A stretch of 64,000 nt of DNA, from the NCBI GenBank assembly GCA_046759445.1, contig JBHICG010000001.1:94467-158466 (forward strand), read 5' to 3'. This document shows, piece after piece, positions 12,771-53,774 of the stretch. The stretch is from Candidatus Scalinduaceae bacterium. GTDB lineage: Bacteria > Planctomycetota > Brocadiia > Brocadiales > Scalinduaceae. The first letter of the stretch is position 1. Each line of letters starts with the position of its first letter. A program made the position numbers and the translations under genes. The notes under the pieces were generated by a model. It did not search any database. It was not told where the DNA came from and worked only from the letters and a program-made list of their open reading frames with translations.

Positions 12771-12838
12771 CACCCCTTAGTCCCCCCACTGCTTTCTTGC
12801 ACCGTATCGGCACGATGCGAAAGCAAGAAGTGGGGGGA
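12771..12838. repeat. Palindromic element (CCCCTTAGTCCCCC family)
   Basis: 40-bp core at 12791-12830 matches 14085-14124 with one mismatch; relative at 53711-53774. Confidence 0.75.
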
Positions 12839-12987: not shown

Positions 12988-14484
12988 ATGAATAGGAAAT
13001 TACTTTCCATAATAATAACAGGACTGGTCATTGAAATCCTGTGTATTTCGATTGCTTCCCTTGGAGATATCAAGGAAAATATACCTATGTTTTGTTTTCT
13101 GTATACAGCCTCTTTTATTGTTTATATCTTTGCTGTATTTTATATTTTGAAAAACACCGAGATATTTGGAAAAGACAAAAGCAATTCTAAAAAGATTCTT
13201 TGGACTATTATAATCTTTTCACTGATATTTCGTTTGACACTATTACCTATGACTCCATCAGAGGATGTTTATCGTTACTTATGGGAAGGAAAGTTACAAT
13301 TAAATTGGCTTAATCCATATTCCTACCCGCCGGAATCGTCAAGTCTGGAACATCTCAGGGACAACTTTTTTTCCGGCATTAACCACAAACATCTGACCAC
13401 AATCTACCCTCCACTGACGTTAATGGCGTTTGCCCTAGCGGATTACGTATCTCATTCCTTCATATCAATGAAGTCTACTTTTTTGTTTTTTGATGTGCTT
13501 TCAATATTCATATTAATAAGGTTTTTAAGGGTAGTGGGAGGGAAACCCGCTAATGTGTTGATATATGCATGGAGCCCGTTAGTCCTTATTAGTTTTGCGG
13601 CAAAGGGACATTGCGATTCTTTGCAGATATTTCTCGTAATTCTTGCCTTATACCTTTTCTCTATTAGAAAGAATTTAAAATCTATCGTTTCGATTGGCCT
13701 GGCAGCAATGTCCAAATTTGTATTCATTATTATAGCCCCTTTCTTAATTCCCAGACGTAAACTCAAATATCTTATAGTTTTGTTTACAGTTATTGCACTT
13801 TTGTACTTACCATACATTGGCGCTGGTAAGGGGTTATTTTCGACACTTTTACATTTTGGGACTCAATATCATTACAATGATTCAGCTCACTTCCTGATTT
13901 TTTGCCTATGTCTCGGCTCTCCATTTATGTCTAAGATAATTACGTCTATAATTTTTTGCGCTGTACTTTTGTATTTGTATATAAATCATATGACCCTTTT
14001 ATTTACAAAAGATAATGAAAATTCCCCTAATTCCTGCTTTAGCAGGCATAAAGGGGGGACAAATCCCCCTCTTTCCCCCCCGCAGCTTTCTTGCACCGTA
14101 TCGGCACTATGCGAAAGCAAGAAGCAGGGGGGATTTAGGGAGATTGATGATAATATTTTAAAATTTGCCTTTCTGTCTGTTGGTACCTTTTTAATATTTG
14201 CACCAACAGTTCATCCATGGTATCTAACATGGATTGTCCCCTTCCTCTGTTTCTATCATAGCTGGGCATGGCTTGTCTTGACAGGAACTGTTGTTTTCTA
14301 TTATTTTATGAATCATAATTTATTTTCAAGTATGATAGAGTATAACAACGAATGGGTATGGCAAGAAGTCCACTGGTTAAAATTACCAGAATATGTCCCT
14401 TTTTATTGTCTGTTAATTTATGGATGGCTAAGATCAGGTTCAGCCGCTAAGGCACGCCAGAACGATGTATCGGCTGTGTCATAA
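12988..14484 (+). CDS. Polytopic GT-C glycosyltransferase (GT87/DUF2029-like) with an in-frame repeat insertion
   Basis: SEDVYRYLWEG, TIYPP, YAWSP, GHCD and TVHPWY motifs. Confidence 0.8.
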   Translation: MNRKLLSIIITGLVIEILCISIASLGDIKENIPMFCFLYTASFIVYIFAVFYILKNTEIFGKDKSNSKKILWTIIIFSLIFRLTLLPMTPSEDVYRYLWEGKLQLNWLNPYSYPPESSSLEHLRDNFFSGINHKHLTTIYPPLTLMAFALADYVSHSFISMKSTFLFFDVLSIFILIRFLRVVGGKPANVLIYAWSPLVLISFAAKGHCDSLQIFLVILALYLFSIRKNLKSIVSIGLAAMSKFVFIIIAPFLIPRRKLKYLIVLFTVIALLYLPYIGAGKGLFSTLLHFGTQYHYNDSAHFLIFCLCLGSPFMSKIITSIIFCAVLLYLYINHMTLLFTKDNENSPNSCFSRHKGGTNPPLSPPQLSCTVSALCESKKQGGFREIDDNILKFAFLSVGTFLIFAPTVHPWYLTWIVPFLCFYHSWAWLVLTGTVVFYYFMNHNLFSSMIEYNNEWVWQEVHWLKLPEYVPFYCLLIYGWLRSGSAAKARQNDVSAVS

Positions 14485-17269: not shown

Positions 17270-17905
17270 TCATTTCAGTGTCTGGTTATACGCTTTTATA
17301 TTTATGAGCATCACCTCAACGGCCATCATGGCAGTTGACCAAATAATGTCAGTTGACAGATGTGATACACAACTTGAATCGAACAAGAGGGACGACTTTG
17401 ATGAGAATTCTTCATCACCTGACCACACAATAAGTACTACAGGCACCCTTGGAAAAGGGGAAAGCTTTAAAGAAATATCTCCATATTCTAACTGAGAACC
17501 ATCAAGACTTTTACCGATGTTTAAAAATTCCTTAAAATTATTGCTAAAGTACTCAGCTATTTTATCCAGGGGAATGACATGCGTGCCTTTCAAAAAAATA
17601 TCTCCTCCAGGTAAATCTGAGGGCCGCACGAGTTGACCCGATAACGGTAGATCTTTCGCATGAATCAAGTATCTAAGAATTGAAAGCCTTGAATATTCAC
17701 GAAGTTCTTTGACCAGGAATTTCCCTAAACTAGAAGTACCGAAGATATCTCGATTCGTCAATGAAATATAGACATCCTGACCAAAGCAGGCTAGTTCATA
17801 TGTCGAATTATGAGAATTAAAAATTACATTAGCCCTGGTTTTTACATCCTTTGAGTCAAGCCCTGTAAGTATATCCCATGCCTGTTTTTCACCTGGCCAT
17901 GCCAT
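17270..17905 (-). CDS. DUF3786-family protein (cassette)
   Basis: DLPGG..F..TH, FPRVP, W.GDEEF.S.S.LLFD. Confidence 0.8.
   Translation of the reverse strand: MAWPGEKQAWDILTGLDSKDVKTRANVIFNSHNSTYELACFGQDVYISLTNRDIFGTSSLGKFLVKELREYSRLSILRYLIHAKDLPLSGQLVRPSDLPGGDIFLKGTHVIPLDKIAEYFSNNFKEFLNIGKSLDGSQLEYGDISLKLSPFPRVPVVLIVWSGDEEFSSKSSLLFDSSCVSHLSTDIIWSTAMMAVEVMLINIKAYNQTLK
17274..17291 (-). other. Truncated attC, left arm only
   Basis: GTATAAC-CAGAC-ACTGAA at the gene end; pairs with the cassette start GTTGTAC. Confidence 0.5.
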
Positions 17906-17919
17906 AATTTATTCTTTTT

Positions 17920-17994
17920 GTACAACGCTCCGCATAACCGGCTGGTAAAGAAGCACAGCAGATTTACCAGTCTGAGTTGATGCGGTTGTTGGGC
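17920..17994 (-). other. attC site (75 bp)
   Basis: Minus strand GCCCAAC AACCG CATCAACT...CTGGTAAA/TTTACCAG...GGTTATG CGGAGC GTTGTAC. Confidence 0.9.
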
Positions 17995-18008
17995 ATTGTG
18001 CATATGCA

Positions 18009-18878
18009 CTATCTATTTAGTTCGTTCTCGATAACGTGCGACAATTTATCCCACGTTTCCTCTTGCTCAATTTCTGGCAATGATAGTAATGGTTTGTCAG
18101 GAGAATTTAATGCTTGAAATTGTGAAAGGTGCTTGTCTCTCAAAAACCGACATGGTTTTAAAATAATAGGTAGTACCCTTGTTCCTTCTAGCTCAGCTTT
18201 TTTGAGAATCGGAGGTAGTTCATTCTCAACAATGAAGTCGGATGCAAGAAAATCGGCACTTATTATTAAAACCGCTATTGCTGCCTCTGATAGTGCTTTT
18301 TCGATTTGTTCTTTCCACTTTTCTCCCGTCTTTATCTTTGTATCATCCCATACATCAACCAATCCATTTTTTTCTAATGGCTTGAGATGAACATGAAGTC
18401 TTTCTAGATGTTTTTTGTCTTCACGGCTATAACTTATAAATACTGATTTTTTATTTTTTGATTTTGCACTGTTCTCTTCTCTGTAATAGTTTAATTTCTC
18501 GTTTTTTAAAAATATATTTCCCCCTGTTCCTATAGAAGACCGCCATGTCCCTTCTATAGCACCATTACCGATAACCTTAGCATTAAGAGTTACGTTTCCA
18601 TGATTCGAAGTTGGCATGCTAATGGTTAGTGGACGGTTATTAACAAAAATTTGTTGTGTGCAATTTTTCTTTAAAAAATCCCAGTCTGGAGTCATATTCA
18701 ATGTAATATCATCATTCTTAATTTCTCCTGAAAATGAATACACTACTGTACCATGAATTGGGTCATGAATTCTGGCAATACCCGAAAGCTTGGTTAATTC
18801 CTGCTTTACTTCTGCAAATACATTTGCATTATTAGTTCCTGTGATTCTTCCTGACCAATTCCCCTCAATACTTCTCAT
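18009..18878 (-). CDS. TIR-domain protein with N-terminal beta-rich domain (cassette)
   Basis: VFISYSRED, VWDD, ISADFLASDFIVENEL including the putative catalytic Glu. Confidence 0.9.
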   Translation of the reverse strand: MRSIEGNWSGRITGTNNANVFAEVKQELTKLSGIARIHDPIHGTVVYSFSGEIKNDDITLNMTPDWDFLKKNCTQQIFVNNRPLTISMPTSNHGNVTLNAKVIGNGAIEGTWRSSIGTGGNIFLKNEKLNYYREENSAKSKNKKSVFISYSREDKKHLERLHVHLKPLEKNGLVDVWDDTKIKTGEKWKEQIEKALSEAAIAVLIISADFLASDFIVENELPPILKKAELEGTRVLPIILKPCRFLRDKHLSQFQALNSPDKPLLSLPEIEQEETWDKLSHVIENELNR

Positions 18879-18916
18879 ATAATTATCCTTTAATAGGTGT
18901 ATCTTTTAAATTTGAT

Positions 18917-18944
18917 GCTTAACGTTCAGCTTAACCGGCTGGCT
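18917..18944 (-). other. Partial attC, right arm only
   Basis: GCCGGTTAAG CTGAAC GTTAAGC; left arm absent and a MITE lies just beyond. Confidence 0.65.
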
Positions 18945-18971
18945 TTGTAGACATTTTTTCTTGGGTTTCTT

Positions 18972-19118
18972 GGGGATGCATCTTGATATTTGACATTGTG
19001 AATTTGCGGCTTACTAAAAAAAGATTTTCCTTCCATGATTTTTCAAATAATTTCTTTGATGTTTGATTTGTTTATCAATTTGTTGGTTTTAACTTTGTCA
19101 AATGTCAAATACGTCCCC
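18972..19118. mobile_element. About 147-bp MITE with GGGGATGCATCTTGATATTTGACA-type terminal inverted repeats, copy 1
   Basis: About 24-bp imperfect TIRs; near-identical copy at 21338-21485. Confidence 0.8.
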
Positions 19119-19211
19119 TATCTCCCGTCCTATCTCCGTCTATTATTGTTTTTTACGCAACTATTTTACTGCAATCCTTCGCCAAGAGGATGTTGCCGTG
19201 ACTTTTCTATT

Positions 19212-19230
19212 CTGTAGTGCTTTGTTATGT
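19212..19230 (-). other. Partial attC, left arm only, after the R-M genes
   Basis: ACATAAC AAAGC ACTACAG ten bp after the REase stop codon. Confidence 0.5.
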
Positions 19231-19240
19231 TTTTTTGTAA

Positions 19241-20359
19241 TCATTTTTCAACTTCTGCCGCCTGTCTCAATGCTAAAAATGCTTCTTTTAAAGGTTGATT
19301 GACAGCGGAATTAGGTTCATCAAGCACTAATTTTTGATATTCCTCGATAAAAGCTGTTCTTTTTCTATGAAAAAAATGCAGAAAGTGTTTTATGAACCCT
19401 ATGCAGTCAAGTATTGCTATTTCAAACTTAGACAAATCATAAATAGATTTTGCATATTCACTAACTTCAAAATCAATTTCTTCGGTGGTTATGAAAATAT
19501 AGTTATCTATGTTTAACTTAGACTCAGCAATTTTTTTAATTGCAATCTCAATATCAGATTTGGTTATTCGCTTTTCTTTCATTTCATAGCTTGTAACAAT
19601 ATTATCATCATTGATTAAAGTTACTTCAACGTCACCATAAGCACCAGTTTGTTTGTCCGCCGCATTGTGTGCTTGTAAATCATTTATTTTTTCTCCAATC
19701 AAATCTGAAACACTGTTATATGCTGCGGCAACTATTAAAATAGGTAATCTGCTTGAATTTTTACAAGCCAAGTGTTGCTGCAATAAATTAACAATTTGCT
19801 CAGATGATAGAGCAATTGATTTGTCTGAGCCTTTTAAAGTTTCGATTAGCTGTTTAATCCGTTTAGCATTTTCTTCCCGTATTATGACGAGTATTCTAAT
19901 CGTTTCTTTAAATAGTTTTTCGGCTGATAAGTTACCTTTATGGACTTCATCAATCAACTCAAGAGCTGCTTTGTATAGCTCAGGTTGTCGGCCAACAAGC
20001 TCTGTTTTGGGTGTCATTGTTGAATTTCTATTTCTAAAAGCAGGAGTCAAGTATGCAGTTGTTGTATTGCAAGGAAGGTTATGTTTTTCTATTACCTTTT
20101 GTATATACTGCTCGTCATAAGTTCTTCCTGAGTAAGCATCTTTATCCCTTATTTCTGTATATGGCTTTCTGATATCAATCTTGGAGTTGTCTATTTTTGC
20201 AGCGCAGCAGGACAATAAAAACCTTATCGGCGCTTTAATTCTTATATTCCTACAGACAAACTCTATTTTCTTCTCTAAATGCTTGCTACCAACGAAAGTC
20301 CTTTTTGCATGTATTGCTCTTTGTACATATTCTTCCAGAGTATTCAATAAATTACTCAT
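19241..20359 (-). CDS. Putative type II restriction endonuclease (PD-(D/E)xK)
   Basis: Directly downstream of an MTase; GDVE...YEMK catalytic-like motif. Confidence 0.7.
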   Translation of the reverse strand: MSNLLNTLEEYVQRAIHAKRTFVGSKHLEKKIEFVCRNIRIKAPIRFLLSCCAAKIDNSKIDIRKPYTEIRDKDAYSGRTYDEQYIQKVIEKHNLPCNTTTAYLTPAFRNRNSTMTPKTELVGRQPELYKAALELIDEVHKGNLSAEKLFKETIRILVIIREENAKRIKQLIETLKGSDKSIALSSEQIVNLLQQHLACKNSSRLPILIVAAAYNSVSDLIGEKINDLQAHNAADKQTGAYGDVEVTLINDDNIVTSYEMKEKRITKSDIEIAIKKIAESKLNIDNYIFITTEEIDFEVSEYAKSIYDLSKFEIAILDCIGFIKHFLHFFHRKRTAFIEEYQKLVLDEPNSAVNQPLKEAFLALRQAAEVEK

Positions 20360-20361
20360 TT

Positions 20362-21258
20362 TTATAATAACCTGCCTATTGTTTCGACTTCATAATTTAC
20401 CCATAGCACTTCTTTTCTTTTATCTTTTGTTGAATGTATTGTCTTCTGTGGGCCAAAATGTTTTTTCCATTTTGGAGCCGGATATAATTTATCCATTAGT
20501 TCACATTCATAATTTGATATTGCAGCTTTTCCCTTGATATTGTTTAAGACCATTGACAACTGAACATGCTCGTCATTACTCATTTCAAAACCATATGCTT
20601 TATTGTCGCCTCTTGTATCGTGAACATATGGCGGATCGCAATAAAAAAGAGTTTCCTTACTATCATACAATTGTATTACTTCAATTGCCGGTCTATTTTC
20701 AATCTGAACTCTTAAAAGCCTTTCTGCAATAAAATCAAGCTTTTCAACTCCACCAATATAACGACTGATAACACCACTCATTCCAGAACGACTTGTATTT
20801 TTGCAATTTGCCCATCTTCCAATTGTTGCCGTTTGTGCTAATCCGGTTCTTACTTGCCTCGCTCTTATATAAAACCTTCTTGCACGTTCTAACTCATCCT
20901 GACTACTATCCAACTCGCAGGCTAGAGAAAATTCTTCTCTGGAAAACGGCGTTAACAAGATTTGTTCTAAAAGTTTCTCTTTTTGAGATCGTAAAACTCT
21001 AAAGAAATTAACAACTTCTCCGTCTAAATCATTATATGTTTCTACATTAGATGGATATCTGTTGAAAAGCACTGCACCTGAACCTGCAAATGGTTCACAG
21101 TAATGATTACAAGAGGGCAAAAGAGGTAATAACCAATCCAAATGAGAATATTTTCCCCCATACCACCCAAAAGCAATTACCTTTTTTCCATTTAATCTTG
21201 TTAATGGTGAGGGAGTCTTTTTTCCGTTTTTACAATTCTTTATCTGCATTTTAATCAT
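20362..21258 (-). CDS. D12-class (Dam-like) N6-adenine DNA methyltransferase
   Basis: WYGGK, EPFAGSGAV, DPPY. Confidence 0.93.
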   Translation of the reverse strand: MIKMQIKNCKNGKKTPSPLTRLNGKKVIAFGWYGGKYSHLDWLLPLLPSCNHYCEPFAGSGAVLFNRYPSNVETYNDLDGEVVNFFRVLRSQKEKLLEQILLTPFSREEFSLACELDSSQDELERARRFYIRARQVRTGLAQTATIGRWANCKNTSRSGMSGVISRYIGGVEKLDFIAERLLRVQIENRPAIEVIQLYDSKETLFYCDPPYVHDTRGDNKAYGFEMSNDEHVQLSMVLNNIKGKAAISNYECELMDKLYPAPKWKKHFGPQKTIHSTKDKRKEVLWVNYEVETIGRLL

Positions 21259-21337
21259 CCCCTATTCTTGTTTTTTTTGAAACCCAACTCATTTATTCTT
21301 TACCCTGCATTTGTTTTATTCTTATCCATATTTTCTT

Positions 21338-21485
21338 GGGCACACATCTTGACATTTGACATTATGAATTTGCGGCTTACTAAAAAAAGATTTTCCTTCC
21401 ATGATTTTTCAAATAATTTCTTTGATGTTTGACTTGTTTATCAATTTGTTGGTTTTCACTTTGTCAAATGTCAAGATACATCCCC
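21338..21485. mobile_element. MITE copy 2 (direct repeat of 18972-19118)
   Basis: Same internal sequence; right TIR TGTCAAATGTCAAGATACATCCCC. Confidence 0.8.
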
Positions 21486-21492
21486 TATCTCG

Positions 21493-21540
21493 TCCTAACA
21501 TTGAATTGAGCAGTTTATCTGCTCAAATGACTGGTTGTGC
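21493..21540 (-). other. Short attC site (48 bp)
   Basis: GCACAAC CAGTC ATTTGAGC AGATAAACT GCTCAAT TCAAT GTTAGGA; L'' carries one extra base. Confidence 0.75.
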
Positions 21541-21658
21541 ATCATGACATCTAATTTTGTACTCGTCATCGCAAACTTGTCTGTTTGTTTATACCCCATC
21601 GTCAGCAATTTCCTTCCAAAATACGGGCGCTACCCCTGGTTTTTCTTTGGTGTAAGTT

Positions 21659-23176
21659 TTAAATATCAACGTTGAATGGGAAAACTCCTACCTCTTCCTG
21701 TAGTAATCTTTGTGCCATAACAACGTCAGGGTCATCCCGATTTTGATCGTAAAAAAGCTGGTCAATCATAGAAGTCAATATAAAAATGTTATGTGCTTCT
21801 TGTGCGTCAATAAATTTAATTTTACTAAGTGTTACACTTCTTGAGAACGATTGTGCTATTTGTAGTCCTTGGTCGTTTTCAAAACCCCGATAAACCACCT
21901 CACCTCTAGATTCGAAGTTTTTCTCAATTAGCACGCCTCCCTTTATAAAGTCTTGACGAACCGGTGGATTAACATACTTTGAGCACGAATTATTATATTT
22001 ACTAGGGTCTATATATGTCTCTGGATTTTCTAAAAAAATATTGATCATATGTTTTTGAGCATCGCAAACATTTTTGATAAACTTTAAAAATATACTTTTA
22101 TCGAAAAGATTAGCCCAAGCTAAGTCGAGAGGGAAAACTTTTTCAATCATTTTTGGAAATTTATCGGCTTCACGTAGTCCATGCTTAAAAGCTTTGTTAA
22201 CTTTTGACAGATTAGTTATATCACTCCAATCGTCAAAGAGCTGAATAGACAAGCTTGAGCCATTTGGAGGTCCCGCTTTTAATAAGTAATTGTGTATAGC
22301 AGCAAATCTAAAAGTTGGACACGCTCGCCATTTATCATCTTCATATGATCCCATTAATGACCAAAATACGATAGCTGATGCCATTTCTAAAGGCATTAAT
22401 TTGTTATGACGGTGCCAAATATTTAGTAGCGCACGGTATAATATAATATAGGGTACATTCAGTTCCTTAAAAACAATGTCCTGAAATCTTTGGAGTGACT
22501 GCTTCCCTAAATCTGACCAAATCGTCTGCATTTGGCAAATTAGCCCGGACAATTCAAATATATGGCAAGGTTGATAGATGACAGATTCAGATTGTTTTGG
22601 TGGTCGAAAAGTAAAATTTCTCATCATCTGATAATAATGCATTGTGACCGCAATTAACCGATCAAAATGATTAAGTGTTTCATTTTTAGCCAGTTTTAGT
22701 AGTGAATTGTCAAGCGTGAAAAAAGGTAAAGTACAAGGTCGGTAATGTAAACCATTTTTAAGAGGCCTCAAATCGGAAAGGTGTTTGAGCATGCTTTGTC
22801 GTTTATGATAATCATAACGAGACCAAGAAGAAATTGGTACTGGAATACAATTAAAGGATTCATTGTTTTTCATATCTATCAAATGTCCAAGAGTCTGCAC
22901 ACCGTTAAAAAGTATCACCATGCGTAGCCTCCACAACATCTGACTATATGGTGCTATAAGAAAATCATGAAAGTGGCGTACTTCGTGAGAACAAACTGAA
23001 ACCATTGACAAAGCATCAAATGCCTGAACTGGCGACAAAGATAATATTTCATTCTCAGTGATTGATCCAGCTCGATCTAACCAATTGCAGCTGTTTTGAT
23101 CGGCTACACGGATCACAACGCCTACATATTTTGGATTAAAACCCCCGTAATCAGCTTGGATAGAATTGATTATCAT
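21659..23176 (-). CDS. Hypothetical protein with HExxH motif, possible zincin peptidase (cassette)
   Basis: SHEVRHFHD and a downstream Glu in HIFELSG; 4-bp ATGA overlap with the upstream gene. Confidence 0.6.
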   Translation of the reverse strand: MIINSIQADYGGFNPKYVGVVIRVADQNSCNWLDRAGSITENEILSLSPVQAFDALSMVSVCSHEVRHFHDFLIAPYSQMLWRLRMVILFNGVQTLGHLIDMKNNESFNCIPVPISSWSRYDYHKRQSMLKHLSDLRPLKNGLHYRPCTLPFFTLDNSLLKLAKNETLNHFDRLIAVTMHYYQMMRNFTFRPPKQSESVIYQPCHIFELSGLICQMQTIWSDLGKQSLQRFQDIVFKELNVPYIILYRALLNIWHRHNKLMPLEMASAIVFWSLMGSYEDDKWRACPTFRFAAIHNYLLKAGPPNGSSLSIQLFDDWSDITNLSKVNKAFKHGLREADKFPKMIEKVFPLDLAWANLFDKSIFLKFIKNVCDAQKHMINIFLENPETYIDPSKYNNSCSKYVNPPVRQDFIKGGVLIEKNFESRGEVVYRGFENDQGLQIAQSFSRSVTLSKIKFIDAQEAHNIFILTSMIDQLFYDQNRDDPDVVMAQRLLQEEVGVFPFNVDI

Positions 23177-23529
23177 TTCTCTTTTAATAACCCCGTAGCA
23201 TTTTGAAGTTTTAGTTGGATTTCCATTTCAGTCATACCCGCAGTTATTTCTTCAGATGCAACCATCGTTCTAATTACAATTTTTTGGTTTGGGTTGTTCT
23301 TCATCCAACGTTCTAAAAGTTTAGCGAATTCTTTGCTAATAAATATACCACCTTGAATGATTGCTATTACCGCTGCCACTTCAATTATACCAAATTGCAG
23401 GTAGGTTTGTTCCTTTTTGCTTGCAATATCTTCGATTACTATGTCATTGGCTTGAGCAAAAGTTCGAAATTGTTCAACAAAAGCAGGGTCACATAGAATC
23501 TCCGTACGTACACTCTTTGGATTAGTCAT
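23173..23529 (-). CDS. Small protein with a central hydrophobic helix, EACC1-like (cassette)
   Basis: GGAG RBS; FGIIEVAAVIAIIQGG...LLERWMK...KIVIR pattern. Confidence 0.55.
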   Translation of the reverse strand: MTNPKSVRTEILCDPAFVEQFRTFAQANDIVIEDIASKKEQTYLQFGIIEVAAVIAIIQGGIFISKEFAKLLERWMKNNPNQKIVIRTMVASEEITAGMTEMEIQLKLQNATGLLKEK

Positions 23530-23562
23530 AAGCTATCTCCTTTTTTTACTAAAGTGATTATA

Positions 23563-23798
23563 ACAAGTTATTATAAAGTTTTTGGATATCACCACTATTG
23601 TAATGATATCAAGAAAACCAAGTTACTACCTTATGGAAAAGCAGCGGGAAGGTTCATTTATTTACGTTTCTGCAAAAATAAACTTAATTCAAGATGATTT
23701 AATCTCATCACACAATGCGGCATAGTCTTTATACTGTTTGAATTGAACATGTTGGAATAGTAAAGCTACATATTATTGAAGTCAAGGGAAAAGAAATG
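23563..23798 (-). repeat. 236-bp cassette-array leader (promoter plus attI-like end), copy 1
   Basis: Four mismatches against 27812-28047; identity ends at ACTTGT, at the G/TT of the first cassette (GTTATAA). Confidence 0.85.
23757..23785 (-). promoter_or_regulatory. Sigma70-type promoter facing the cassettes (Pc-like)
   Basis: TTGACT-17 bp-TACTAT. Confidence 0.7.
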
Positions 23799-23835
23799 AA
23801 GGGGTCTCAATGGGTCATCTCAATCTCAACTCAAG

Positions 23836-23916
23836 GGGTCAAGTCTGCCGATAGCTAATCTAATAAAGACTGTATACGTAAAATAATATCAGTTAAGCCA
23901 TAAGCAGACTTGACCC
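23836..23916. mobile_element. 81-bp MITE with 13-bp perfect TIR GGGTCAAGTCTGC
   Basis: GGGTCAAGTCTGC...GCAGACTTGACCC; overlaps the 3' end of the GT gene. Confidence 0.7.
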
Positions 23917-25233
23917 TTTTCGTTTATCCAATTTCCTATAACATAGTAAATTCTGGCTATGATATAGAAGGTATTTTATGATCTCAAAAATCAACAACGC
24001 AGCAAGAATACAAAAGACTACTTCAGAAACATATCTGTATCTGGTCTTTCCCCAAAAAATTAACGCGTATCCTATCCAGTTCATCATCACGATTCCGTAT
24101 AGAAAGACCCACATTCTGAAGGTATATCGGCACAAGAATAAGAAGGACAAACTAGCAGCCAAAAACAAAGCAAAATAGGTTAGTGTCAATTTGTAAAACC
24201 AATAGGTACCTTTCAGTTCTTTTGATGGCCATGGTGTTCCTTGTTCTAATCTTGGTAAGCGAGTACTCCATGCTACGGAATAAGTATCCGAAGTAAAAAA
24301 TAATTTGTACGTTCCTTTTGCAATATCCTTGGCTATTCTTAATAGGCTAGCGTTGGTTAGATACTCAAGTCCAAGTTGGTAACCGAGTTCCTGCTGCTGA
24401 ACCTCATTCTTACCGTCGAAAACTGTTCCCTTTAGAGTATGCCAGCCATATCGATTCTCATTATGAGCATAATAGAAGTTTATGCCTCCTGTGGTAGACA
24501 ATCCTGACCCCGCACCAACCAAGTAATGGTTCCGGATATACCAAGGAGCAATGGTTACACCAAAAGCCAACAAAACTAGAAATACCGACAAATATCTGTG
24601 AGCGTTATGACTGAAATTGAAATATATCATCACTAAAAGTACTGGCAAAAAAAAGATGGCCTCGCCACGAGTCAAGGCTGCTGTTCCAAATAATACACCG
24701 GACAATACTAGTCTCACAGTCCGACGAGTAGATAAATTTACACGGTTGTCGCATAAAACCAAAAAAGCTGAAAAGAGGAAGATAACGTACAAATGCTCTG
24801 AAACAAGTACTGGTGATAAGAAAACAAACGTTGGATTAAAGGCACAGATCAAAGCAGCGAGTATTGAAAGTAGTTTTTCTGAAGTTAGATATAACACAAG
24901 CCTCCATACTATATAGATCAAGAATGTGGACAGAATCACATTGACAAAACTTAACCAAGCTATTGAATTACTTATCCACATTGTGATAGCAAGAAAGACT
25001 GGGTACCCGGGAAGTCGAAACGCGGACGGATTTGGAATTCCAAGCTGACCCTGCTTCAAGAGTCCTTCAGCCAAACGTAGATACTCCTCAGAGTCTGATA
25101 CTGGAACTGGTTCAGCATATGCCCACCATAGAACTCGTGCTGCAAATCCAAACAGAATAATAAGAATGATCCATATTGGACATTCCCGCAATGATAGAGG
25201 TATGAAACCAAGAGTGTTCTTTTTTTTCATCAT
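23893..25233 (-). CDS. GT-C (ArnT/PMT_2, GT39/83-like) membrane glycosyltransferase (cassette)
   Basis: VSDSEEY, RLPGYP, SE.L, TR.E, PW.IRN, RYR. Confidence 0.8.
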   Translation of the reverse strand: MMKKKNTLGFIPLSLRECPIWIILIILFGFAARVLWWAYAEPVPVSDSEEYLRLAEGLLKQGQLGIPNPSAFRLPGYPVFLAITMWISNSIAWLSFVNVILSTFLIYIVWRLVLYLTSEKLLSILAALICAFNPTFVFLSPVLVSEHLYVIFLFSAFLVLCDNRVNLSTRRTVRLVLSGVLFGTAALTRGEAIFFLPVLLVMIYFNFSHNAHRYLSVFLVLLAFGVTIAPWYIRNHYLVGAGSGLSTTGGINFYYAHNENRYGWHTLKGTVFDGKNEVQQQELGYQLGLEYLTNASLLRIAKDIAKGTYKLFFTSDTYSVAWSTRLPRLEQGTPWPSKELKGTYWFYKLTLTYFALFLAASLSFLFLCRYTFRMWVFLYGIVMMNWIGYALIFWGKTRYRYVSEVVFCILAALLIFEIIKYLLYHSQNLLCYRKLDKRKGSSLLMA

Positions 25234-25246
25234 GAATCCTTATAAA

Positions 25247-25373
25247 GGCTAACGTTTAAGCTAAGCTAACCCGCTTAGCAAATAGAACTATGAATAAGGA
25301 TAAAATAAACAAAGAATCTAAAACTTGAAAACCGCACATGATAAAAGGGGTTAGCTTAAGCGAATGGTTATGT
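25247..25373 (-). other. attC site (127 bp)
   Basis: ACATAAC CATTC GCTTAAGCTAACCC...GGGTTAGCTTAGC TTAAAC GTTAGCC. Confidence 0.9.
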
Positions 25374-25380
25374 AATTTTT

Positions 25381-25917
25381 CTAAGTCTTGTTAATTTGTT
25401 TGAGTGCTTTAGGTACTCTTATATGTTGTTTTATTAATGGTTTTGATTTGTAAATATTAACAAATGTTTGTCTCAAGTCTTTATTTATTTCCAAGTCGTT
25501 GACAAATAATTTGTGAGCTTTTTTCATATGGCGAAATAGAGGATACGGATTTATAATAACATGATCAAAGCCATTTGGTTTTTTCAGATGTATTTCTTGA
25601 GCCCATGTCTCTTTACTACAGAGAATGATAAATTTGTTTTCCATATTGAATGAATGAACTAACCCACACCTTATAATTTTGTAAAAAATCTCAGGTTCAT
25701 AACTTTCAGGGAAATAGTTTCCAACAAAAGTCATAATTTTCTTCTTATTACCACTTGTGCTTGGACTTGCTGCTGCATAATTTGCCAATGTATCTACAGC
25801 ACAGCATATTAATATTGTTGCGCCAACTCCCTGATGTAGTTTTAGACAACTTGCAATATTTGAGTACACATATGCAGGAAAGTGTTTATTAAATCTGGAA
25901 ACATAGGGATTACTCAT
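25381..25917 (-). CDS. Hypothetical protein with HEPN-like Rx4H motif (cassette)
   Basis: Helical protein with IRCGLVH and an N-terminal CAVDTLA. Confidence 0.6.
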   Translation of the reverse strand: MSNPYVSRFNKHFPAYVYSNIASCLKLHQGVGATILICCAVDTLANYAAASPSTSGNKKKIMTFVGNYFPESYEPEIFYKIIRCGLVHSFNMENKFIILCSKETWAQEIHLKKPNGFDHVIINPYPLFRHMKKAHKLFVNDLEINKDLRQTFVNIYKSKPLIKQHIRVPKALKQINKT

Positions 25918-25929
25918 ATTAATTTTTAA

Positions 25930-26037
25930 ACATAATGAAACGGATGAGCTACGGCGGAGATGAAAAAGATTTTATGAGTCAATAATAAGTCTAGGATCGC
26001 CTAAGTCTTCGTCGTTAGCTCAAGCCGATTGTTAGAT
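25930..26037 (-). other. attC site (108 bp) with R' box ATTATGT
   Basis: ATCTAAC AATCG GCTTGAGCTA...TAGCTCATC CGTTTC ATTATGT; FRG stop codon lies inside R''. Confidence 0.85.
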
Positions 26038-26952
26038 TTTTGTGTCATTTGGAGGTGGAAACCGCATATCTCTCAAATAATTTGTTTTTGAATTATAGTT
26101 GTATGAATTAATTACATCTTGTGCAACACCATCAGCATTCATATATAAAGCCCCTCCATTAATTCCCATAAGTTCTAATTTAGCAAAAACATCAGTTACA
26201 CAATCTTTTTTAATAAATACTTTATAAAGAGTAGCTTCCGCCTTCTCTATCTCTCCATTTGGGAGATGTGTATCTGGCTCCTTATGCTTCTCGATCAATT
26301 CGTCTAAATTTTCAGCATCTATATTGCTGTAGTTAAGTGTGTCATAAAGAAAAGCTCCATGTTGCCGATGCATGCGAGAGTTATATTTTCCTGGAAATGG
26401 AATGAATTGCATCCATGGACCTGGAAAACCATCTTTAAATAGGTCTCCTTTTGGATAAAGAAAATCTTTATATCGTTTCATGACTTCATCATATTTTTCT
26501 TTTGGATCTAGAAACAGTGTAGCCCACAACCATGCCAACTTGCTAAAATTTAAAGCATAAATAACAGAATATTCCTTTTCTTTTGACTTGTAGTTTCTCC
26601 TAACTCCATTGAAAGTGAAAAATAATGCGATATATGGGGAATAACTGAAATCTAAAACGGGTGTGGGGACACCATGATGGCGGGCATATTCAAGCCAATC
26701 AAGGCGATTGTCACTTTTAAAAGGCAGCATTCCGAGCTTCGTCAGACCAACACGAAATTTGTCGATCATTTCGTCAATATCTGAACTCCATGATTCATGG
26801 GGTATTTTCCTGTGACGATTTAAGGTTGTTGTTAGTTTATAATGTTCTTTCGTATGTCCTCTAAATACAAAGTCTCTCTTTACAAGAGCAAGATTATCTA
26901 AAAACTCAAAAGCACTATTCGCATTATCAAAATGGTGATTTTCAATGCTCAT
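26032..26952 (-). CDS. FRG-domain protein (cassette)
   Basis: FRGH, HHGVPTPVLDFSYSPYIALFF, RMHRQHGAF. Confidence 0.92.
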   Translation of the reverse strand: MSIENHHFDNANSAFEFLDNLALVKRDFVFRGHTKEHYKLTTTLNRHRKIPHESWSSDIDEMIDKFRVGLTKLGMLPFKSDNRLDWLEYARHHGVPTPVLDFSYSPYIALFFTFNGVRRNYKSKEKEYSVIYALNFSKLAWLWATLFLDPKEKYDEVMKRYKDFLYPKGDLFKDGFPGPWMQFIPFPGKYNSRMHRQHGAFLYDTLNYSNIDAENLDELIEKHKEPDTHLPNGEIEKAEATLYKVFIKKDCVTDVFAKLELMGINGGALYMNADGVAQDVINSYNYNSKTNYLRDMRFPPPNDTKI

Positions 26953-26968
26953 TCTTTTTCTCTTTAAA

Positions 26969-27026
26969 ATCTAACGGCCGAATTAAGCGGGCGTGTTAAC
27001 GCTCCGACTTGAATGATTTGTTATAA
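26969..27026 (-). other. attC site (58 bp)
   Basis: TTATAAC AAATC ATTCAAGT CGGAGCGTTAACACGCCCG CTTAATT CGGCC GTTAGAT. Confidence 0.93.
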
Positions 27027-27032
27027 GATAAA

Positions 27033-27800
27033 TCATTGAAGTGCAATAGAACTTAATTTTACAAGAATTTTCCAGCCAGTAATCACTAGCCTAGTTAGAA
27101 CTGAAGTGATTATTAAACTTAATACAATTTGTCCAAATAATCCCAATGGTTTCTTTTTAAATGACGTAATTGGCCAATACTTGTCTCGAAGTTTACCCAG
27201 CAATACTAAAATGTAAGTCCATAGGTTTGAGAAAATAAGAAAAAAACCGATGAACAAAACAAAAAAGGAGTATTTTACTTTGAGTGCTGGCGAGAGGAGA
27301 CTCGCTACTATTAAGCAGAAAGAAAAGCCAGCGATGACGCCGAAAAGTTGAATAAGCAATTCAGTAAAGGGATTCCGAGTTACACCATTGTGATTTTGGT
27401 ACTGTGCGAGTCTCGTCGAAAGTCTTTTGAAAACATTATCAACCCATTTTTCATCATCATCAGATACAGCAAGATAACATCTTGAGCTATCTGAAGCATC
27501 TAATAGTATTTGTATTCTTTTTCCTTTATTTTCTAAAAGGTTTTTAACAGAGGAAAAATCAAAGATAACACGCTCAATTTTTTTTCCAGTTTCGAAACAG
27601 CGTTTTATTTCGGAATAATCTTTCCTAACAATTCCCATCCCATCGTAACGCAGGGTGTATACATTCGATTTTAGTTTTTCATCTTCAGAAAATGAGCTAG
27701 TTTCGTTTACGATAGTCTGTAAATCCGAGTTTATTGCGTCAATATCACCTATGCCAATAGTTAAATAGGGCATGAAACTATCTTTTAAGTAATCACTCAT
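27033..27800 (-). CDS. Hypothetical membrane protein: soluble N-domain plus about 3 TM helices (cassette)
   Basis: 255-aa ORF between the leader and an attC. Confidence 0.7.
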   Translation of the reverse strand: MSDYLKDSFMPYLTIGIGDIDAINSDLQTIVNETSSFSEDEKLKSNVYTLRYDGMGIVRKDYSEIKRCFETGKKIERVIFDFSSVKNLLENKGKRIQILLDASDSSRCYLAVSDDDEKWVDNVFKRLSTRLAQYQNHNGVTRNPFTELLIQLFGVIAGFSFCLIVASLLSPALKVKYSFFVLFIGFFLIFSNLWTYILVLLGKLRDKYWPITSFKKKPLGLFGQIVLSLIITSVLTRLVITGWKILVKLSSIALQ

Positions 27801-27811
27801 TTATTTACCTT

Positions 27812-28047
27812 ACAAGTTATTATAAAGTTTCTGGATAACATCACTATTGTAATGATATCAAGAAAACCAGGTTACTACCTTATGGAAAAGCAGCGGGAAG
27901 GTTCATTTATTTACGTTTCTGCAAAAATAAACTTAATTCAAGATGATTTAATCTCATCACACAATGCGGCATAGTCTTTATACTGTTTGAATTGAACATG
28001 TTGGAATAGTAAAGCTACATATTATTGAAGTCAAGGGAAAAGAAATG
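27812..28047 (-). repeat. 236-bp cassette-array leader, copy 2
   Basis: Direct repeat of 23563-23798. Confidence 0.85.
28006..28034 (-). promoter_or_regulatory. Sigma70-type promoter (Pc-like), copy 2
   Basis: TTGACT-17 bp-TACTAT. Confidence 0.7.
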
Positions 28048-28350
28048 TGTAAGTGAGATATAGGGTGGGGTGCACCGCAAAGCGCTCAAAACCAGAAAAT
28101 TAATCAAAATTAAGGTAATGTCCTAATTTCAGTATCTTTCGTATTGCTTCCTAAATTTTTAGAGTCCTTACCCGATAAATATAAAAACAAGAAAAGATTT
28201 TTTTATTAACTGTAGTTTTTAATTGACTATTTTAAAAAAAATGATTTATAATATTTAAATTACCCTAAATTATGTTATCTGCCAACACAGTACAACTTTT
28301 CTTTAAAGAACAAGTGTTATCACAAGCTTCTAATAGGACTATAATTAGCG

Positions 28351-28764
28351 TTGGTAAATGCTTATTCATGCAAGATTAAATGGCCTGTAGATGGCAAAGA
28401 AATAGTAATACGAATAGAACCAGCGTATTTTGATTTTCTTAAAATTTATTGGCCAAATGATTTTATTAATCTTTATACAGTACATGAAGTATTAATAAAA
28501 CCTAATCGTATATTCTCTGGTCTCAACAGACCTTATAGTGATAGTAGTAATAAACTATGTGTTGTTGGTAAACCTCTTTATTGGTATATAGGAAATACCA
28601 ACAACAAAGTGCCTTTTCCATCCGGCTTCGTTTATGTAGTATTTTTGAACGAAAGATACAGTGTATATGAATTTGGAGCAGAGAAAGCAGATACAGATGA
28701 TTCATTAAGTCCTATAGGTTGGAGAGATCGCTTTGGAGAACTGATATGGAAGAAAAATTCATAG
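28351..28764 (+). CDS. Hypothetical protein, possible BECR/RelE-fold toxin
   Basis: VHEVLIKPNRIF pattern; overlaps a DUF2283-like gene. Confidence 0.45.
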   Translation: MVNAYSCKIKWPVDGKEIVIRIEPAYFDFLKIYWPNDFINLYTVHEVLIKPNRIFSGLNRPYSDSSNKLCVVGKPLYWYIGNTNNKVPFPSGFVYVVFLNERYSVYEFGAEKADTDDSLSPIGWRDRFGELIWKKNS

Positions 28765-29171
28765 AACAAGTGACACAAGGCTTAAAAGGAAGTGATTTTG
28801 GCTCTAAGCAACATGAGCCTCAGATTTGGTATAACAAAGAAGGTGACTGTATTCAATTTAAGACCAGACATGTTGCGACAATAAGAAAGAGAATTGACGA
28901 ATATTTAACATTATATGCGACAATGGAAGATGAAGATCCAATTGGATTTCAATTAAAAGATATACATGCACTAGCCAGTGTACATGATATAGATTTAATG
29001 GCTATACAAGCAGATTACACTTCTAGGGATAAAAAGTTAGTTTCAATCAGTATGCTGATATTTAAGGCTTTTGCTAAAAGACCTCCTTCTATAAACAGGA
29101 TTTCTGGCTATACAGATGCATTTAGGACTATGGTAAAAGATGGAGATAATGTAAAAATTCCAGTATCATAA
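28746..29171 (+). CDS. Hypothetical protein, DUF2283-like putative antitoxin
   Basis: IWYNKEGDCIQF...IGFQL pattern; ATG at 28746 preferred over TTG at 28719. Confidence 0.5.
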   Translation: MEEKFIEQVTQGLKGSDFGSKQHEPQIWYNKEGDCIQFKTRHVATIRKRIDEYLTLYATMEDEDPIGFQLKDIHALASVHDIDLMAIQADYTSRDKKLVSISMLIFKAFAKRPPSINRISGYTDAFRTMVKDGDNVKIPVS

Positions 29172-29225
29172 TTATATGCCTATTATACAAATTCTTGATT
29201 TTCAACTTTTTAATATAAATTTTTT

Positions 29226-30065
29226 TTAGTCAACAGACCACATATATATTTTGTCAATGGTACTATCTTTATTCTTTGCACCAACCATGAAACATTTTGA
29301 TTGACAAGGAATATTCTCACCAAAGACTTCAATTCTTATCTTTAAATCACCATTATCTGTAGAATAACGCACAGGGATTCTGGTATAGTTATGATCAACC
29401 TCAATATGGCAAATATCAAAACTAAGACTATCTTCTTCTTTCCCTGCCATGTACCATTCTAATACATCCACAAATATACATTCTCCAGGAGCAATATTAA
29501 CAGATCGCCTATAGGGTTGAACGTTGTTATCCGTAAATTTAAGAATTTCCTCCCTACCAGTGGTTCCCTCAACTATCAGTTTAGCCTTAACATCTTTAAT
29601 TGTTGTTACAGAAGAATCATTGTGAATAGAAATTCTCCACACTCGCTCAAAGCGATCATATATATGTTTTGTGTTTGGATTCTTATTTTTTTGGAAAGTA
29701 TCATGACAATAACTTGGATTATTTTCAGAAAAATCTATTCGTAATTTAGGTTTTTGCTGTTCTTCTAAAAATTCTATTGTTTGCTGTTTAGAATTTATAA
29801 TATCTTGTTGTTCTTCGTAGATATCTTCAGGTACAAGACGCAGTGATTTCCATAAAAATAGAACTCCAAACATTATTATTACTCCTATAAATTCATAAAG
29901 TAATGACATTAAAATGTTATAATTTTTATTGGCTACAAGAATACCATTAATAATTGTTCCAATGATTATAGTGGCAATCTCGTATAATTTCTTTTCCTTA
30001 AAAAATTCCCAAATTTCGTTCTTTGTTCTTAAAAGGCGAATTTTGTGGTATTTTCTAGATTCCAT
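29226..30065 (-). CDS. Hypothetical protein with two N-terminal TM helices
   Basis: 279-aa AT-rich ORF with a coiled-coil-like segment after the TMs. Confidence 0.6.
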   Translation of the reverse strand: MESRKYHKIRLLRTKNEIWEFFKEKKLYEIATIIIGTIINGILVANKNYNILMSLLYEFIGVIIMFGVLFLWKSLRLVPEDIYEEQQDIINSKQQTIEFLEEQQKPKLRIDFSENNPSYCHDTFQKNKNPNTKHIYDRFERVWRISIHNDSSVTTIKDVKAKLIVEGTTGREEILKFTDNNVQPYRRSVNIAPGECIFVDVLEWYMAGKEEDSLSFDICHIEVDHNYTRIPVRYSTDNGDLKIRIEVFGENIPCQSKCFMVGAKNKDSTIDKIYMWSVD

Positions 30066-30216
30066 GCCCAGATTCTATTGTCTGGACTATGTTGTGTCAA
30101 AAAAAATAATTCAAATTAGGACACTGCCAAAAAATTAATCAATTCTTGACATAATATATGATAATCGGCTATACTAAAAGTTTATTTATAGTCCTAATAA
30201 CAAATATGTATAAGGA

Positions 30217-42016: not shown

Positions 42017-43789
42017 TTAACCCTTTTTCCTCTTAGATATTGTCATTAGTCCAAAAATTACTATTGCCGCAACTACAATAATACCTCCCAGTACACCAAC
42101 AATCCCTCCTCTATCCTTTTTTACTAATATCTTGTCTACTTCCTTAGCCCTTAATAATTTCTGCGCCTCACTTTCCATGGCGCTTATCTTTTTATAAACC
42201 ATGGCAGAACCAAACCACCACGAAATATCCTGTTGCACATGTGCAATACCTTTGTATGCGTGGGCCTTGTCACCAAACCACATGTCAGTATATAAATTTT
42301 CTATGTAGGAAGGATTATTACTCCCTGCCATGAAAACACCATAAACCCCCAATATAGGCCCATACACAGGCAACTTGCCACCAGTAGCCTTAAATGCATT
42401 GTAAATAGTCTCTCCAAGTAAGTCAGGTCCTAATACATCCGCAAGCACTTCTCCCATTGGATACGGATCTCTCTCTGAAACAGGAGGATCAAAGGCGTCT
42501 GCTGCCGCTATCTCGTCTAAAATTAAGTGTGCCCTATCCTGTAGCTGCCACATCTCAAACATCATATTATCCAGGTTTTCAAGATAAAGCCTTGCCCAGC
42601 GTGGACTATGGCAACTGGAACACATTTGTATCCATTTTTCTCGCTTTGCCTTACTTTCTGGCGAGTATATGTCAAGTTTATAATTCAATGGCGGCAACTT
42701 TACACCATATGGATAAGCCTTAAGGGAGGACTCAAATTCAACACTCTTTGGCGGAACAGTACCCATTCGCCATATAGCCTTTGAAGCAGTAGTGTGTGTG
42801 AACTCTCCCTCCCTCTGATACATGTGACAGAATTGACAGGTAGGAGCTCTATAATCTTTGCCGGGTATAACCTGTCCAAGTGGTTTTTCCCAATCCCAGC
42901 GCTCTCCTTCAAGTTCATATATTATCCCCATCTTGGATCCCAGATAAGACTCGGCGTCAGGATGATCAAACCCCATATGGCAACTAATGCAAGCCTCCGG
43001 CCTTCTACCCTCAGCAGCCGTATATTTATGTCTTGTATGACAAATATCACACTTCTCAGTAGTTGCATGACAATAATCACATCCAAACATGGTTGTGAGT
43101 AAACCTCTCCTTGCATTTTCAGAATACCATGGTGGAACTACATTAGCCGCAAATGCGTCCACGTGATTCGGACGACCATATTTCATTTCATCCAGATACT
43201 CACCTACCTGCTTAGGATGACACTCACCACATATATCAGGTGTAGGCATCCTAAGTTCTTTGTGGTCTTTGCCATGACAATTACTACACGTAACCTCCTT
43301 TAATTCCGTTTCCAGCAATTGTTCTATCCGTTTCGTCTTCTGCGAAAAATAACTGTTCTTTTTTGGATTTGCATGTGTGGAGCTCCTCCAATCATGCACA
43401 ATACCCGGCGTTACCTCCTCATGGCACTTTACACATTCCTCAGCTTTATACTTCTCCAATAGTTGGTCATAATATGTGCCGTCGGGTCTTACATAATGCC
43501 TTTTAGGAAACCAGTACATTTGCATTGGCACGGGTTTGTAATAATCCTGCCATGGCCCTGCACCCTTTTCCATCCCGACATTATCGCTATACAATGCCCT
43601 TAACTGCTCAGATGGGTAAATCTCGTTATAATAATTCATTGCCCTTTTTTGCATCTCCTTAGTTATTGGCTCATCAACAACTTTATAAGCTTTTTCTTTG
43701 TGTTCTTTTGCGGCGATTGCAAGATTATCCTGCAAGACGTAAAAGACCGTAATCGAAGTTACAATCACACAAATTTTTAGAAGATTCAT
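42017..43789 (-). CDS. hao: Octaheme hydroxylamine oxidoreductase-like protein with C-terminal TM anchor
   Basis: Eight CxxCH in HAO spacing (CDICHTRH, CHMGFDH, APTCQFCHM). Confidence 0.9.
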   Translation of the reverse strand: MNLLKICVIVTSITVFYVLQDNLAIAAKEHKEKAYKVVDEPITKEMQKRAMNYYNEIYPSEQLRALYSDNVGMEKGAGPWQDYYKPVPMQMYWFPKRHYVRPDGTYYDQLLEKYKAEECVKCHEEVTPGIVHDWRSSTHANPKKNSYFSQKTKRIEQLLETELKEVTCSNCHGKDHKELRMPTPDICGECHPKQVGEYLDEMKYGRPNHVDAFAANVVPPWYSENARRGLLTTMFGCDYCHATTEKCDICHTRHKYTAAEGRRPEACISCHMGFDHPDAESYLGSKMGIIYELEGERWDWEKPLGQVIPGKDYRAPTCQFCHMYQREGEFTHTTASKAIWRMGTVPPKSVEFESSLKAYPYGVKLPPLNYKLDIYSPESKAKREKWIQMCSSCHSPRWARLYLENLDNMMFEMWQLQDRAHLILDEIAAADAFDPPVSERDPYPMGEVLADVLGPDLLGETIYNAFKATGGKLPVYGPILGVYGVFMAGSNNPSYIENLYTDMWFGDKAHAYKGIAHVQQDISWWFGSAMVYKKISAMESEAQKLLRAKEVDKILVKKDRGGIVGVLGGIIVVAAIVIFGLMTISKRKKG

Positions 43790-53710: not shown

Positions 53711-53774
53711 AATCCCCCTTAGTCCCCCCACTTCTTGTTTTCGCAAGAAAGCAGTGGTGGGACTAAGGGGGATT
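53711..53774. repeat. Palindromic element AATCCCCCTTAGTCCC...GGGACTAAGGGGGATT
   Basis: 16-bp perfect inverted arms; same family as 12771-12838. Confidence 0.8.

Follow-up and report, generated by a model that had tools for sequence, protein, structure and literature searches.

Promoter–attI leaders lacking an adjoining integrase gene, likely landing pads for integron cassettes, in a Scalinduaceae genome

The window analyzed here, a stretch of 64,000 nucleotides from Candidatus Scalinduaceae bacterium (GenBank assembly GCA_046759445.1, contig JBHICG010000001.1, forward-strand positions 94,467 to 158,466), contains a direct repeat of 236 bp, each copy of which starts with a promoter-like sequence and ends like attI, the site where an integron receives its gene cassettes, with no integrase gene (intI) beside it. 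What is such a leader, how could it have been loaded, and how did it come to be there twice? We conclude that in each copy (A and B, Table 1) a predicted promoter is fused with the attI of this family's own integron integrase, free of intI, and that the copy is likely a landing pad loaded remotely by the integrase encoded on contig C104 of the same genome. The pads are taken as attI because their core matches an intI-linked attI, homology stops at G/TT (the slash marks the crossover), attC cassettes with complementary ends follow, and some cassettes are common to pads and intI-type sites. That the pads are loaded in trans, and that the leader drives transcription of their cassettes, is probable, judging from the sequences.

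As the original prediction had stated, the copies lie 4249 bp apart with four mismatches, and both carry TTGACT and TACTAT separated by 17 nt, on the minus strand. All four mismatches fall within the last 59 bp of that strand (a chance of about 0.004 if uniform, by hand arithmetic). In two sequencing runs (X1 and X2, possibly the source of the assembly) the 3′ junction of each copy appears on its own contig with 0 differences, and the 177-bp contig shared by both copies shows roughly double depth (32.8 against 15–19 in X1, 27.6 against 9.6–12.6 in X2). The pairing of left and right flanks comes from the original assembly, the 177-bp core being bridged by none of the contigs of these runs, but with two distinct left and two distinct right junctions an assembly artefact is scarcely credible. 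The same holds for the end of a known insertion sequence (IS): no terminal inverted repeats and no adjoining transposase gene were seen in the scan of the window open reading frames (ORFs) or in the module flanks, the left flanks are unrelated, and plasmid and phage searches gave no match. On these grounds, and not on an IS library, we rejected a self-mobile MITE (miniature inverted-repeat transposable element) or IS end. A structured RNA was rejected as well, the leader having no Rfam match at gathering score (a single sub-threshold match falls on the palindrome neighboring it), and so was a cryptic attC, since the palindrome, lacking an R″ partner, stops about 14 bp short of GTT. The predicted absence of a divergent intI next to either copy stands: a Pfam scan found no integrase or transposase family among the 56 window ORFs.

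Two integrases of the genome score above the TIGR02249 cut-off (265), on contigs C8 and C104, the latter with 389 bits. The core CAGAAACTATAGAATAACTTG/TT is found 116 bp upstream of the C104 intI, facing away from it, and is followed by a first cassette that ends in a complementary R″. Over 21 positions copy B differs from this core at two and copy A at three, while the core of a leader on C49 is identical. The layout is TTATAAT, 5 bp and GTT, with the L box assigned by position; L and R boxes of attI are described as 4–5 bp apart in the accessible text of PMC12614218 and PMC12901181, and the leader has this spacing. Upstream of the core, where we looked for the accessory direct repeats DR1 and DR2, there are a conserved block and a palindrome. 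With a pattern ending just before TT, the genome yields 13 sites (reversed control 0), 11 of which continue with TT, which was outside the pattern; only one, that of C104, has an adjoining intact intI. The same pattern finds 118 sites in 28 genomes of the family (control 17, summed from the table). Among 30 integrase loci examined, the core lies upstream and divergent at eight, all of long-form integrases, and a ninth core near an integrase (L050) is convergent. The idea that the leader ends at an attI crossover point is thereby borne out. Of the finds expected from it, further copies followed by different DNA and one copy beside intI, both were made, except that what adjoins intI is only the core of about 25 bp and not the 236-bp leader. 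In the short type of attI (L072/L002:3740-3830, on C104 of this genome, G000), two opposed promoter-like sequences can be seen by eye within a TTGACA-TT-TGTCAA palindrome, one directed toward intI and the other toward the cassettes.

The distribution of these sites was surveyed in two sets. The first comprises 99 sites, 13 from this genome and 86 from 80 fetched stretches, a subset of the 105 matches in relatives: 43 are of the short type, as found beside intI (seven with a long intI, for which they were chosen, and nine with intI fragments), 43 carry the leader block, none with an upstream intI, and 13 were left unclassified. This genome itself has eight leader-type and five short-type sites. 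The second set, enlarged by database scans and with three mismatches allowed, comprises 82 leader-type sites from Scalindua-family genomes and metagenomes. Seventy of them continue with TT and 63 with G/TT, and past TT the majority base falls, over no more than two bases, from 0.90 to less than 0.5. No upstream or divergent intI was found at any of the 82, 73 of which have at least 1 kb of flank; the single IntI match is downstream and convergent. The portable Pc/attI module (Pc, cassette promoter) first proposed as a seed of arrays thus appears well founded, with many intI-free copies and different DNA behind each. The whole leader is present in 24/24 genomes of the family and in 0/16 others. 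In another anammox family the core occurs in 32 of 47 genomes, with more control matches there; among 22 sites in 20 chosen stretches from other anammox families, 19 have TT, 10 an attC and two an adjoining intI remnant. In two nearly closed genomes of another anammox family (G037 and G206), attC-bearing cores on multi-megabase contigs are separated from any intI by more than 1 Mb, and breaks in contigs therefore do not account for the missing intI. At one locus (L019:870-1850, G017 C78) a promoter module, a toxin-antitoxin-like gene pair and a full leader are followed, 133 bp past the junction, by the 3′ end of a short intI in convergent orientation.

The 5′ module of the leader, of about 150 bp, comprises promoter, leader and start codon. 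Its homology starts about 13 bp before the −35 box, and TAnnA(T/C) lies 17 nt past that box in 69 of 76 anchored 5′ ends. Taken alone, the promoter match is at chance level (9/12 positions; 14 matches in the region against 22.5 in shuffles), and the predicted promoter is supported because its boxes are conserved across copies, not by the match score. Where transcription of the cassettes from a putative Pc was looked into, the conserved boxes were what could be seen; the RNA run X5 comprises contigs only, with a word share of 0.15, and cannot show expression. The 80-bp attI block is also found joined to other promoter-like sequences; the leader unites two parts that are found separately as well. 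Upstream of the module the flanks are unrelated, with no common repeat end; at its left edge, where a join to the R″ of a lost attC was looked for, YAAC occurs in 15 of 64 cases against 4.4 expected, with motif and search range picked post hoc, and is absent in A and B. An 8-codon mini-ORF is kept at that length in most full leaders with a varying start codon, and recalls ORF-11 and ORF-17 of attI1 (PMC8876359, as far as accessible). A native small gene for the module was considered and rejected, since none is conserved (the frames past the ATG have 10–84 codons).

The one recognizable frame past the ATG is fused to an IntI tail. At 7/7 sites in four genomes (L252–L258; G022, G016, G023, G014) the module precedes a short co-oriented intI, intact in one case and deleted or disrupted in six, whose stop lies 88 bp before a G/TT junction with attC cassettes behind. 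Co-oriented integrons are described in Treponema (PMC3607928, accessible part). These sites show an apparent route within the Scalindua family from a whole integron to a promoter plus attI, and the leader type may have begun in this way, by loss of intI from inside a co-oriented integron, which we rate as possible, somewhat under an even chance. In the unrooted tree of 51 modules the leader-type modules are scattered (six changes, at least two forced), and an order of events was not drawn from it, the tree being too unresolved. Could each pad then be the relic of its own complete integron whose intI was lost in place, by the ordinary route to a cluster of attC sites that has no integron-integrase (CALIN)? 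Loss of intI is among the CALIN origins listed in PMC4889954 (accessible text), and in-place loss is demonstrated here for other types of platform, by the intI fragments at 9/43 intI-type sites and the six co-oriented cases. However, the upstream side of all 82 leader-type sites is free of any intI remnant, the fused 236-bp layout recurs across genera, and tandem pads lie 0.7–1.2 kb apart; the fusion was evidently copied after the integrase had gone. We consider separate in-place loss improbable.

Cassettes were sought with a position weight matrix (PWM) of attC, trained without leader-type sites, which replaced an insensitive first heuristic (two matches in the window). With it, 23 of 54 leader sites have an attC within 2.5 kb, as do 19 of 42 intI-type sites (on which it was trained) and 3 of 400 random segments. 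The R″ agrees with the junction over 8–10 nt at C14, C48, C49 and C104, and for at least 4 nt past AAC at 6/36 leader sites (permutation mean 0.73, maximum 4 in 500) and at 8/38 intI-type (short) sites (mean 1.09). Moreover, two pairs of sites, each of one short-type and one leader-type site, have a short cassette in common from the junction on (L138/L139, 133 bp at 100%; L150/L028, 126 bp at 89%). In the window, copy B stands at the head of three attC cassettes, with a fourth gene, of 446 aa, behind them, while behind A there are one short, one interrupted and one intact attC, all in a single orientation; every gene from 27800 to 17270 is on the minus strand. By our own PWM, not IntegronFinder, this array has the at least two attC and no nearby intI that define a CALIN, and with no intI adjoining attI it is not a complete integron. 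The array lies in an accessory stretch (17270–30130) whose flanks are about 130 bp apart in G001; G016 and G017 hold an attI-less module at this locus.

Leader-type sites 0.7–4.2 kb apart were found at 11 loci including the window, two of them orthologous. At seven of 58 leader sites the order is attI-gene-attI with no attC between, and a second attI follows an attC at three more. The right half of an attC lies upstream at 10 of 70 leader sites (about six independent loci), against 6/500 in the background. The mid-array position, at which the leader was first supposed to restart transcription, holds for a minority of sites. The 446-aa gene, without an attC of its own, ends in a palindromic repeat which we take to be REP-like or MITE-like (REP, repetitive extragenic palindrome), and leader A follows, forming an attC-gene-attI unit. 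IntI1 excises and inserts cassettes of the ΔattI type (PMC12901181, accessible part). By analogy, recombination of a pad attI with an upstream attC, attI or GTT site would release a circle carrying the leader, and its reinsertion would give gene-leader-attI units in tandem. That the integrase also spreads the pad in this manner we put at just short of an even chance, going by sequence. The whole scheme, a distributed integron with one integrase and a dozen promoter–attI pads per genome, each copied as an attI-ended cassette, is offered tentatively.

Alternatively, the pads could be real attI sites that the integrase loads but does not copy, the copying being due to homologous recombination, gene conversion or a REP-associated HUH transposase. 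Copy A abuts the palindromic repeat with its left end, a Y1 transposase gene lies within the C104 array and no attI is needed for the 5′ module to spread. Conversion of the 5′ 177 bp fits the confinement of the differences to the last 59 bp, a clustering which leaves room for it, and other copies equal A in matching the last 58 nt of B (54–55/58). Against such routes, the module has unrelated upstream flanks without a common repeat end, there is no transposase among the scanned window ORFs, and tandem pads, often just 72–92% alike, do not suggest local duplication. We regard copying without the integrase as rather unlikely. The Y1 (IS200-like) gene itself stands after the last attC of the C104 array (L002:6205-6756). 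At another locus (L003; G000 C49 20003–22941) two tandem leaders have in common about 140 bp inserted within the 5′ module.

A number of results weigh against pads loaded and spread by the integrase. At the window itself, copy B has no GTT triplet at its crossover, reading G/TAAGG, and behind copy A, whose junction is G/TTATAAT, the 118-aa and 505-aa genes end without a complementary R″ after them. Neither attC nor attI lies downstream at 27 of 58 leader sites, and most first genes behind leader sites are without a matching R″, so many pads must be decayed or were never loaded. The 5′ module lacks attI in 32 of 51 cases, often standing before ordinary genes, and can therefore spread without it. 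The co-oriented G/TT junction has its own different core, with a similar upstream block, and the co-oriented modules form a separate long branch in the poorly resolved tree. No complete attC (score at least 16) was found upstream of any of 44 leader sites in an earlier test with shorter flanks, which means that arrival inside arrays is not the rule, and comparison of the leader sites did not find the same cargo gene with its downstream leader in two unrelated contexts. Finally, attI1-gene-attI1 is excised at 100% (PMC12901181, accessible part), so stable tandem pads would be puzzling alongside a frequently active integrase. Do the leaders then amount to a portable promoter only, with a vestigial attI-like end and genes that no integrase captured? 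The modules without attI and the roughly half of leader sites without attC would fit this, but the sharp G/TT boundary, the R″ complementarity above permutation, an attC rate equal to that of intI-type sites and the identical cassettes at leader-type and intI-linked sites make it very improbable.

The two window junctions also qualify the original statement that identity stops exactly where a different first cassette starts: copy A does read G/TT, but B has lost 3 bp, and an attC array follows B, whereas the cassette status of the genes behind A is not demonstrated. The end of cassette 1 predicts GTTATAAGATAAA; three bp of it are missing at the B crossover and 9/10 of the remaining bases agree. 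Since IntI1 requires GNT (10.1101/2022.04.29.490043, accessible part) and the B junction lacks it, copy B has probably ceased to function as an attI. The A junction starts with TTATAA, the six bases predicted by cassette 1, which occurs at 1 of 111 TT junctions; A may thus be a pre-loss copy of B and not a new capture. We would read B as the older position, which took up cassettes 1–4 and then likely lost activity with the 3 bp at its crossover, and A as a likely recent local copy or conversion of B that may drive the genes behind it.

The closest precedent is the ΔattI-type cassettes of Gonzales Machuca et al. (2026, PMC12901181; the comparison covers the accessible text), in which a gene inside an array is bounded downstream by attI DNA of up to about 240 bp. 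They occur in class 1 and 2 integrons as attC-ORF-ΔattI, attI-ORF-ΔattI and attI1-ORF-attI1, the longest being ΔattI2-238; the unit formed in the window by attC 3, the 446-aa gene and leader A, and the tandem pads elsewhere (7/58 sites), have this layout. ΔattI cassettes are infrequent (96 among 1685 class 1 integrons) and mostly scraps of 14–18 bp in arrays with their own intI, and their mobility is demonstrated, whereas pads are a full promoter plus attI heading separate arrays at many chromosomal loci without intI, with a presumed mobility. Compared with CALINs (Cury et al., 2016, PMC4889954), pads retain attI and a predicted promoter and are multicopy, and none of the four origins listed in the accessible part of that paper is a copied promoter–attI pad. 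The chromosomal platform (intI-Pc-attI) is alike in attI core, L box, 5-bp spacer, G/TT and a predicted promoter facing the cassettes, but the accessible text of PMC3607928 gives one attI per integron, and here there is no intI in cis and 13 cores with one beside an intact intI. Putative mobile promoters (Nijveen et al., 2012, PMC3575422) resemble the 5′ module of about 150 bp as repeated promoter regions before unrelated genes; the module differs in being often fused to a recombination site and in driving, presumably, a co-oriented intI in four genomes. ORF-less cassettes containing promoters (PMC8876359, accessible part) also bring a new promoter into an array, and some pads start 40–190 bp past an attC end, but those are standard cassettes, while a pad ends in attI and so can receive cassettes.

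Cassette clusters without an integrase are frequent and of open origin, and are usually taken for relics or off-target insertions. A cluster headed by a pad has a conserved attI and a predicted promoter at its start, so that loading and expression could still take place; pads would give rise to integrase-less arrays by a route that is absent from the literature searched. That search, thin on subscription papers, returned no report of attI in Scalindua or of dispersed promoter–attI pads. IntegronFinder matches attI sequences of classes 1–3 only (PMC4889954, accessible part), and such pads would be missed by it. If the distributed integron is real, arrays can carry a promoter and attI per gene in place of attC, the platform is a mobile substrate of its own enzyme, and integrase-less arrays have a new origin. 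For a direct test the genome provides one intact integrase with its attI, pads that are intact, and one pad whose broken crossover makes it a natural negative control. Cargo genes of the window are of a kind that is largely defense-like (FRG, restriction-modification, TIR).

Table 1. Features of the two leaders and of the cassette array behind them (window coordinates).
Feature	Coordinates	Strand	Details
Leader copy B	27812–28047	−	promoter module plus attI block; head of cassette array
Predicted sigma-70-type promoter, copy B	28006–28034	−	−35 28034–28029, −10 28011–28006
8-codon mini-ORF, copy B	27880–27906	−	where promoter module meets attI block
Imperfect palindrome, copy B	27828–27865	−	5′ of attI core
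attI core, copy B	27813–27833	−	L box 27825–27819, 5-bp spacer, crossover G 27813; then TA, not TT
Cassette 1 gene	27033–27800	−	255 aa, no family match
attC 1	26969–27026	−	R″ predicts cassette start GTTATAAG
Cassette 2 gene	26032–26952	−	FRG domain (PADLOC PDC-S15 matches)
attC 2	25930–26037	−	R′ is ATT, not GTT
Cassette 3 gene	25381–25917	−	178 aa, no family match
attC 3	25247–25373	−	near-copy of one attC in the intI-linked array of C104
Membrane glycosyltransferase-like gene	23893–25233	−	446 aa; cassette-type start after attC 3
Palindromic repeat	23828–23924		three further genome matches
Leader copy A	23563–23798	−	−35 23785–23780, −10 23762–23757, mini-ORF 23657–23631
attI end, copy A		−	L box 23576–23570, crossover G 23564
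118-aa and 505-aa genes	21659–23529	−	behind copy A; no family match, no matching R″
Short attC-like hairpin	21493–21540	−	48 bp; R″ mismatches copy A junction
Dam-like methyltransferase and SacI-like endonuclease genes	19241–21258	−	
attC halves	18917–19230	−	split by second copy of 143-bp inverted-repeat element; by eye
TIR-domain cassette gene	18009–18878	−	
Final attC of array	17920–17994	−	

Some further features of the window deserve mention. The 143-bp element with terminal inverted repeats has two copies in the genome, both here (18966–19108 and 21332–21474), one splitting an attC and the other placed after an attC end. The 505-aa protein has just four other homologues (30–52% identity, without context), and the 118/505-aa pair was found in none of 400 genomes of the phylum. 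Next to copy B, a segment of about 2 kb lies between 32-bp inverted repeats (28098–30144) and holds genes of 137 and 150 aa with a paralogue on C37, where it stands downstream of a 5′ module of the same direction, which suggests an inversion in the window. Further palindromic repeats, of another family, are intergenic (12773–12837, 14076–14131, and 53711–53774), and a long cluster at 42017–63987 contains genes for multiheme cytochrome c, Rieske/cytochrome b and bd-oxidase-like proteins, with internal paralogues.

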